Assembly (NCBI GenBank): GCA_010015805.1
Contig: ML978127.1
Location: 1,736,001-1,800,000 of the forward strand
DNA from: Rhizodiscina lignyota
Taxonomy: Eukaryota
Direction: 5' to 3'
DNA: 64,000 nucleotides
Position numbers and translations under genes: made by a program. Below are positions 46,338 to 48,347 of this stretch, piece after piece. Under the pieces are notes generated by a model. That model worked only from the letters and a program-made list of their open reading frames with translations, did not search any database and was not told the origin of the DNA. The stretch's first letter is position 1. Every line of letters begins with the position of its first letter.

Positions 46338-47133
46338 CTACTCCACGTCTGCTTCCTTGCCCTTGTCGAAGTTCTCGCCCTCCACAAGATCCGGAATATC
46401 GTCATCGTCATCATCGTCCTTCTTCTCTTCGCCGTTCTCGCCGCCCTTCTCCTTCTGCATGCTCTGGTAGCTTTCCGCAAGCTTGCGCAGCGAAGCCAGC
46501 GAGTCAGGACCGAGCTGGTTGAGGATACCCGGAACAAGCTCGGTGAGCTCCTTATCCTCGCCATTGCCGTAGATCGCGAAGGTGTTGGCAGGAACAGATG
46601 CATGGACTGCTCGATACGACTATATTAGCAAGACAGAATTCTCTTACGAACATTGCGCAGCCTGAGAAATTCTCATGACTGTTCACCTTAGCAAATGAAG
46701 GCTTCCGAAGACGTACCCTTTGGTGCCGAGAAGTGTATGACATTTCCGTCAGACTTGAACATGTTGACCTCCTCAATTGCCTGGATAGGCTGCACGTTGA
46801 GCTTCTTCAACGACGTCTGAAGCTTTTTGTCGTCGGTGCCGCTGCTCTTGTGGACCTTCTTGACTTTTCGCCTAGGAGTGCCCTTGCCGCTGTCGGGAGT
46901 AGTGAACGCGTCAATAAGTGCTTGCAACATTTTGACTGTAGAGCAAAGGCGAGGAATGAGGCGTAGAAGAGAGGTATGGTCATTTGTGGAGGAAGCCGTG
47001 GAGGTAGAGTGAAGAAATAGTTTGCTTACCCTGCAACACATTAGCAAAACATTACACTGGAGACTGTGAGGTACCAATTCTACTTACCAATGCGCACTTG
47101 CGCTTGCATCCGCGCGAGCTTTGCCTGATCCAT
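46338..47133 (-). CDS. EGD1: Nascent polypeptide-associated complex beta subunit (162 aa); exons 47133-47088, 47030, 46889-46717, 46606-46338
   Basis: [79 protein letters not shown]. Exon lengths sum to 489 nt. Confidence 0.95.
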
Positions 47134-48347
47134 GATGGCAGAGAAAGAGTGGAAGGTGGAGGTGAAGAGGAAATCTCGGTGTGGGTCTAAAGAAGCTAAA
47201 TCGCACTGACATATTAGCATTGACGAAAGGCAGAAGGGCCCAGGAAAATTACATACGGTTAATGGAAGATGCTTAGCAAGACATCACTGCCCGGAGTTGG
47301 ATTTGGGAGAGCTGGACGTTGCTTGTGCGTCGAGGCGTGTGATGCCCAGAAGATTGCAGCCACTGGAGGTGGTTTTACTCCGGCGCTGTCGTCTAAACTT
47401 CGGCTGTGGGGCAGGTACTCGCTTAGAGTAAATAATACTCGAGTGAAGATCCCTTCATGTCTCAACATGCAGACTGCTTCAACGTCTAGCTATTGCTTCT
47501 ATGTATCCGTCGGACACATCTAATGTCATTGGAACCCGACATATTCCAGCTCCGCAGTGTATCACACAGACACCTTCAAGTCAAAACTGAATCCCTACGC
47601 GCAAAGTACCTTCGGAGATCCGAACGCCGACCACGAACCCGTACAAAGGCAAAGACTCGAACGCTCGAGTGGACTCAGTTGAAAGTTGAACGTGCTGATA
47701 TCTATCAGCATACTTGTGGCGGAATTGAGCTCACCTGCAAAGCGAGCTAGACTTTGCATTAACATATATCTGTCATGGGCTTTGCTCATCTTGCCAGCGC
47801 CCATGTGGTGATAGACGTAATCGAAATAGCATTATTTTACGCCTCCATCGTGGATAAGTAGAGCAGTGCCTCTATAACTCCGATTCAGCTTGGACTTGGC
47901 GGAGCATGTAACAAGCACCCCTCTGCTAGGGAGAATTTGCTTGTGGTCCATTTTCAACACAGCATCCCATAGCCAATCCTCACCACTCAGCCGCCGTTCC
48001 AAATTGTCGTCCTGATGCATGTGCCCCGTTGAAGGATCATTCAAGCCCGCAAGTCATCTCGGCCGCCCGTTTCTACCGTGCTTGCTCTTTTTTCAGTCCT
48101 TTCGATTTCGATATGTATGTTCCCTCGTCCGTTCGTCTCTCCTATCAGCGATGAATTGCCCGCTGAGCTTTGAGTTGGTTGCTTCGAAGCTCATTTCCGT
48201 ACGGCCATGAATACTCCCCCCAGCCGCAGCTGTGAGGGGAGAGCCACAAAGAACCTACGACAAGACACTGGGAGTCAATTGGCCCCGGACGGTGATATGT
48301 AACTGTTGTTGATGGATGAATCATGATCGGTTGTTGAATGTTGTCGT

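Follow-up and report, generated by a model that had tools for sequence, protein, structure and literature searches.

A very likely one-nucleotide exon in the NAC-beta gene of Rhizodiscina lignyota and its conservation in related fungal loci

How can a gene yield a conserved protein when the two exons that flank the conserved stretch are out of phase by a single base? We addressed this question for a gene on the minus strand of a 64,000-nt stretch of DNA from Rhizodiscina lignyota, the whole of which is called the window here. Judged by its translation, the locus is the NAC-beta (EGD1/BTF3) gene of a Dothideomycete, encoding the beta subunit of the ribosome-associated NAC chaperone. Exon 3 alone scored 57.3 bits (E 1.4e-15) against the Pfam NAC family (PF01849; cut-off 21.3 bits), while P0011, the public gene model for this species, reached 75.2 bits. 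The exon 3 translation additionally contains the motif RRK-(X)2-KK, described as the ribosome-binding motif of yeast beta-NAC (PMC4664479), so that it carries the marks of a beta subunit as well as of a NAC-domain protein, and the nearest named proteins are annotated as NAC subunit beta. The gene could be read from the sequence as four exons, one of them a single base long, with boundaries and lengths confirmed by script:

47088..47133, minus strand: exon 1, coding part, from the ATG at 47133 to the G at 47088; 15 codons plus the first base of a Gly codon
47031..47087, minus strand: intron 1, 57 nt, phase 1; GTAAGT donor, branch-like GCTAAT at 47045-47040, TTGCAG acceptor
47030..47030, minus strand: putative one-nucleotide exon, G; middle base of the first Gly codon in RIGGKGT
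46890..47029, minus strand: intron 2, 140 nt, phase 2; GTAAGC donor, branch-like TTGAC at 46914-46910, GACAG acceptor
46717..46889, minus strand: exon 3; begins with C, the third base of the Gly codon, followed by the ribosome-binding RRK-(X)2-KK motif and the start of the NAC domain
46607..46716, minus strand: intron 3, 110 nt; GTACGT...GAGCAG with a tandem GAG/CAG acceptor
46338..46606, minus strand: exon 4, coding part, ending with the stop TAG at 46340-46338

The Gly codon that follows Arg-Ile is split three ways, with its first G at the end of exon 1, its second G at 47030 and its C at the start of exon 3. Two complete GT-AG introns are found on either side of position 47030, each with its own donor, branch-like sequence and acceptor, and exactly one base lies between them; in intron 1, the branch-like GCTAAT is located 10 nt before the intron end. 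A preliminary description of this DNA had reported the same coordinates, lengths and motifs for both introns and for the G, all of which proved correct against the sequence and by script. Since the flanking exons are out of phase by one base, the conserved protein is restored solely by including this G. The product of exon 1, the G, exon 3 and exon 4 is an open reading frame of 162 aa with the junction RIGGKGT. Skipping of the G leads to a frameshift with a stop after residue 42, at a TGA within exon 3. Retention of intron 1 gives RIGK followed by a stop two codons past the Ile codon, and retention of intron 2 gives RIG followed by a stop one codon past it. The two earlier statements that the single base is needed for the conserved RIGGKGT and that its omission produces a premature TGA could thereby be confirmed in silico. 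We consider it very likely, on the evidence of the sequences compared here, that the G at 47030 is a constitutive one-nucleotide exon between two ordinary U2-type GT-AG introns of NAC-beta.

This reading depends on the genomic letters being right and on the internal signals not being there by coincidence. One public run (X1), which is not on record as RNA, contains this DNA, and its contig with a word depth of 147 is identical to the window from 46600 to 47300, with 0 differing letters and 0 gaps. An extra base at an outer splice junction, named in the preliminary description as an observation that would speak against the exon, is accordingly absent from this contig, although the match alone is a weak check, since X1 may be the source of the assembly. 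To describe the internal signals we used a strict motif, in which a branch-like CTRAY is followed within 40 nt by YAG-G-GTRN[GA]. On both strands of the 64-kb window, this motif has one match, at 47030. It was found in 48 of 13,200 shuffled interiors and in none of 63 matched stretches that directly follow exon 3 in the related loci described below, and a total of 495,522 nt (78 distinct loci) held 85 matches, a number that includes the NAC-beta site of each gene. A chance origin of the combined branch and YAG-G-GT motif is excluded.

Related loci were collected by searching metagenome contigs with the peptide encoded by exon 3, which returned 298 confirmed loci. The analysis covers the best 80 of these 298, that is, the ones most similar to the query, so that lineages with intron loss could sit among the remaining 218. 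In all 80 loci, exon 3 is preceded by AG and one variable base, followed by GGN-AAR. Over the 66 distinct sequences (window included), the variable base in front of the first codon of GKGT takes all four values (A 23, C 22, T 19, G 2), which is the pattern of a wobble position and therefore places the acceptor in phase 2 throughout. On the other side, exon 1 ends with the Ile codon plus G, followed by GT and never by GG and then GT, in 79/79 loci matched by the exon-1 peptide pattern, and the donor is therefore in phase 1 throughout. The last of the 80 loci (L009), read by eye, has the same exon-1 end and escaped the pattern because an additional intron splits its exon 1. From a donor in phase 1 and an acceptor in phase 2 everywhere, it follows that the one-base deficit is common to every one of the best 80 of 298 loci. 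The additional intron in L009, a Mycosphaerellales-like locus, was noted in the region 160-360 of that sequence, runs from GTACGT to CTACAG and follows the codons for MDHEKLA; the one-base exon of this locus looks as usual.

The internal signals are conserved to the same extent. The internal branch and YAG-G-GTRN[GA] are present in 67/67 distinct intervening sequences (the 66 and L009), and in the 66 sequences checked for number the strict motif occurs exactly once. An alignment of orthologous loci for a conserved AG-N-GT, suggested in the preliminary description, consequently gives AG-G-GT in 67/67 distinct sequences: the exon base is G without exception. Some of the invariance that a position table of these sequences displays is imposed by the search pattern itself; what carries information is that no sequence lacks the pattern. 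The positions flanking the internal signals vary freely. Intron 1 is present in 80/80 loci with a length of 57-487 nt (median 97), intron 2 spans 68-252 nt, and 63/63 distinct downstream stretches begin with GT at the same place, marking the start of intron 3. Three Lecanoromycete-like loci (L005, L030 and L043) stand out by an intron 1 that, at 475-487 nt, is approximately five times as long as the median intron 1 (97 nt), next to an intron 2 of just 82 nt. The donor of intron 2 is GTAAGC in 31/66 sequences and position +6 is C in 40/67, which could reflect shared ancestry or constraint; for the donor of intron 1, 15 different hexamers were observed.

If the single base is kept constitutively, spliced products of relatives should read RIGGKGT. 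We examined 121 unnamed ORFs, which had been called without splicing on environmental and run-assembled contigs. Sixty-one of them are open across all three intron positions, comprising exon 1, the junction and PKVH or PKVQ after intron 3, and represent 50 distinct sequences. RIGGKGT is found in 61/61 of these relatives' ORFs, and an extra or missing residue in 0/61. In the remaining 60, the frame does not stay open through intron 3; 59 of them look like unspliced genomic ORFs and one lacks the GKGT motif. We infer that the 61 ORFs derive from cDNA, because of their continuity, because of in-frame 5' read-through of at least 5 residues upstream of the start, which was seen in 19 of the 61 and is typical of ORF calls on cDNA contigs, and because most of the spliced ORFs that were checked lie on contigs of about 0.6-2.5 kb. 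At 9 loci, exon 1, Gly and exon 3 match an ORF or a named model exactly. Since the 5'-UTR translations differ in 6/6 pairs tested, such matching loci and ORFs would belong to close relatives rather than to the same genomes. Partly spliced products were not seen among the 121 unnamed ORFs; these products end in early stops and would therefore mostly escape protein searches. As the mRNA alone cannot tell which of the neighbouring G residues is kept, the assignment of the exon to one position rests on the conserved internal arrangement of acceptor, G and donor.

The preliminary description had further expected gene predictors to miss the exon, and public gene models bear this out. P0011 differs from its orthologues by two one-residue insertions and was reproduced letter for letter by a script from two splice choices. 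In one, exon 1 is extended by 4 nt to a weak donor, GTAGAA at 47083, resulting in RIG-N-GKGT with an extra Asn. In the other, intron 3 ends 3 nt early, at the GAG acceptor instead of the CAG, resulting in PK-A-VHAS with an extra Ala. At this tandem acceptor (46607-46612, minus strand), PKVH or PKVQ is found in those of the compared orthologue models that have a splice at this site, and in each of the 61 cDNA-like ORFs. For a wider comparison, we took 41 named models found by a query with exon 3 only, a sample that is unbiased by the junction for this reason. Only 4/41 read RIGGKGT, and the 37/41 discordant ones comprise 8 with one extra residue, 2 with one Gly fewer, 19 with longer inserts and 8 with a different N-terminus.

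Some of the ways in which the models fail can be read from the splice sites. One extra residue occurs in 16/89 named models of other species (8/41 in the above sample and 8/48), a class that is explained by donors of the form GTNNGT, which hold a second GT at +5/+6, so that a donor shift of 4 nt restores the frame. This shift was computed for the window; in other species the extra residues are N, T, E, D, I, H and K, and here the same shift may likewise be the source, with the residue formed from the +3/+4 donor bases and the exon-3 base. If exon 3 starts with A (23/66 distinct sequences, for instance L004, L011 and L024), a second AG follows 2 nt downstream, and a form with one Gly fewer is therefore possible, in which the G is skipped, the second AG is used and the frame is kept. 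A form with one Gly fewer appears in two NCBI models, P0091 (Orbilia) and P0096 (Ophidiomyces), and in 0/61 spliced ORFs. A third kind of predictor work-around is seen in P0116 (Dactylellina haptotyla), which reads RIG, 16 further residues and then GGKGT; this fits a translation of intron 1 in frame together with removal of intron 2 at the correct G/GT and AG/N boundaries. The junction errors lie four residues upstream of the RRK motif and propagate into alignments, structure predictions and orthology sets.

Three other readings of the junction have to be weighed against the one-base exon. The public model could be right, with exon 1 extending to 47084 and a single intron running from the GTAGAA donor at 47083 to 46890, so that the protein would indeed read RIG-N-GKGT. 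This reproduces P0011 exactly and keeps the frame with one GT-AG intron, and one extra residue is also annotated in the 16/89 named models of other species mentioned above. Its donor is weak, however, and the GT on which it relies is the +5/+6 position of the consensus donor GTNNGT, by which a frame-saving shift is on offer in every species. Moreover, the extra residue is absent from all 61 spliced ORFs of relatives, and the conserved internal branch and YAG-G-GT, present in 67/67 sequences, would be left without explanation. We therefore judge this model to be very unlikely. A single intron of 198 nt with non-canonical ends, for instance starting at GG/TA or ending in CA, would be a more elusive alternative, since its mRNA is identical to the product of the one-base exon and the spliced ORFs cannot tell the two apart. 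It would, however, demand a non-GT or non-AG end in 80/80 loci despite the conserved outer G/GT and AG/N, and it offers no reason why branch, YAG, G and GTRNG should be maintained in 67/67 intervening sequences amid drifting sequence and length, which renders it highly improbable. As a third reading, a G could be missing from the assembly at an outer junction, with GGG read as GG and one ordinary intron in place of two. Homopolymer errors are common in some technologies, but the X1 contig agrees over the stretch, even if it may represent the source data, and the same one-base deficit recurs in 80/80 independent loci from other organisms. Because these 80 loci all share this deficit, an assembly error is untenable, and we assign it next to no probability.

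A further proposal does not replace the constitutive reading but would be placed on top of it. The preliminary description had suggested that inclusion versus skipping acts as an NMD-coupled switch, in which a regulated cassette with a frameshift targeted to NMD would tune the dosage of NAC-beta. In the skipped form, roughly 90 nt separate the stop from the last exon junction downstream of it, making this form a plausible NMD substrate, and an artificial one-nucleotide exon in potato invertase is described as skipped in 33% of transcripts (PMC4674806). The long conservation of so awkward a layout also invites a functional reason. Against this, 61/61 spliced ORFs of relatives correspond to the inclusion product, a count to be read with the fact that frameshifted products would escape these protein searches, and no regulation was seen in them. 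The stop itself is no evidence of design, because any frameshift gives a stop, and the conservation may just reflect how difficult it is to lose two 5' introns precisely. The switch is thus unsupported by the present data, and we regard a regulated cassette as unlikely.

For the favoured reading, a constitutive one-base exon, we propose a model in which the G serves three roles: it occupies position +1 relative to the acceptor of intron 1 and position -1 relative to the donor of intron 2, and it is the middle base of the Gly codon. Both introns would be recognised through intron definition and spliced out in succession; the ordered or recursive splicing proposed in the preliminary description is plausible in this sense. 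Sequential removal is suggested by the geometry of the site, since U1 paired with donor 2 would extend over the acceptor AG of intron 1; with donor 2 only 5-32 nt (median 15) from branch site 1 and U1 over the AG, two early complexes would hardly fit together. We tentatively favour an order in which intron 1 is removed first and co-transcriptionally, because intron 1 is available in full before transcription of intron 2 has ended. After this step, exon 1 plus the G would constitute a normal 5' exon for intron 2, and the one-base exon would function in the manner of a recursive splice site, except that a single base is retained.

Several systems described previously share parts of this arrangement. 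The preliminary description had called it akin to fungal stwintrons, in which one intron is inserted into a splice signal (donor, branch site or acceptor) of another, this signal working only once the inner intron has been excised, and in which the two are not separated by any exon base. The present case resembles the stwintrons of Pezizomycotina in that two adjoining U2-type introns of a fungal nuclear gene would be removed consecutively. As worded, however, the comparison is not supported, since neither NAC-beta intron interrupts a splice signal of the other: the signals of both are intact beforehand, in-silico removal of either intron leaves the other unchanged, and one base is kept. Ratchet points of recursive splicing, as in the Drosophila and human cases, operate in very long introns and contribute no base to the mRNA. 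They are zero-length exons at which AG abuts GT (PMC4674806), and they share with NAC-beta that the acceptor adjoins a donor and that the first reaction leaves the upstream exon abutting a regenerated 5' splice site. In NAC-beta, in contrast, one base is kept and the introns are short (57 and 140 nt); a recursive splice site in the form of a zero-length exon was thus rejected, because the mRNA requires the G that separates AG from GT.

Closer counterparts are found among one-base exons proper. In the CYP621A P450 genes of Fusarium, a one-nucleotide exon was described and claimed to be the first fungal case (Nelson & Syed 2026, PMC12940212), a claim made without mention of NAC-beta. As in NAC-beta, the host is a fungal nuclear gene, the exon lies in an AG-G-GT pentamer, its G takes the second position of a Gly codon belonging to a conserved motif, and the exon was deduced from a phase mismatch together with orthologue conservation after having been missed by annotation; the triple role of the G in AG-G-GT had already been pointed out there (PMC12940212). 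CYP621A, however, is a rarely expressed accessory gene, for which 20 orthologues from one genus are given and SRA reads serve as RNA proof (PMC12940212), whereas NAC-beta is a core housekeeping gene, whose exon spans at least five classes of Pezizomycotina and is known from DNA and from the ORFs of relatives. In Arabidopsis APC11, a constitutive one-nucleotide exon likewise lies between canonical introns and the cDNA had been mis-annotated (Guo & Liu 2015, PMC4674806). Intron definition and removal of one intron after the other were argued for that exon as well, and the authors refer to a 9-nt exon from potato for which the intron on the downstream side is spliced out first (PMC4674806). The plant gene was tested with GFP fusions, and the identity of the base is reported to be immaterial for splicing (PMC4674806), in contrast to NAC-beta, where the base is fixed as G, although the Gly codon alone would also demand this. 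A long-read annotation of Coprinopsis cinerea lists 13 one-base exons (PMC12230235). Here, too, one-base exons recur in fungal nuclear genes and their omission breaks gene models, while the organism is a basidiomycete and the passages on these exons give genome-wide counts without naming genes or depth of conservation (PMC12230235). A search of the full-text literature, which included the text of PMC5639578 and covers few subscription journals, returned no paper on a one-base exon in NAC-beta, EGD1 or BTF3. One-base exons as such are already published, and the NAC-beta case is notable for its breadth, for its host gene and for the scale of mis-annotation.

To estimate how widely the layout is distributed, we labelled the loci by their best-matching named protein, where labels below about 90% identity are rough. 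The closest assignments, with the identity of the named protein to a locus, were the following:

Ophiobolus, Dothideomycetes: 159/160
Exophiala, Eurotiomycetes: 155/157
Hyaloscypha, Leotiomycetes: 156/158
Wilcoxina, Pezizomycetes: 155/158
Lepraria, Lecanoromycetes: 148/158

Weaker matches were obtained to truffle relatives (Choiromyces, 147/167) and to Orbilia (142/163). Among the best 80 of 298 loci, neither Sordariomycetes nor Eurotiales appeared as nearest named relative, and a search for contaminating fungal loci in contigs of prokaryote genomes gave 198 pattern matches, 0 of which were confirmed. Since the nearest named relatives span five classes of Pezizomycotina, the exon is probably ancient. 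The Pezizomycetes branch near the base of Pezizomycotina, and a single origin at or before this base is consequently the simplest reading. The one-base-exon layout, as far as can be told from the compared loci, probably dates to the base of Pezizomycotina or earlier. A much bolder version would hold that the NAC-beta exon is the oldest and most widespread one-nucleotide exon known, fixed ahead of the Pezizomycotina radiation and perhaps even of the divergence from budding yeasts, and that it persists not by inertia but because obligatory two-step splicing with occasional NMD-targeted skipping sets chaperone dosage to ribosome numbers; this is speculative, and we think it quite improbable.

The conservation over at least five classes indicates that a one-base exon can stay stable for a very long time, which bears on models of intron gain, sliding and loss. 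NAC-beta is a highly expressed gene, present universally, in fungi that are genetically tractable; its natural one-base exon offers a test bed for how two introns only one base apart are handled, on which the order of intron removal, steric exclusion between the two sites and the rate of skipping can be tested.
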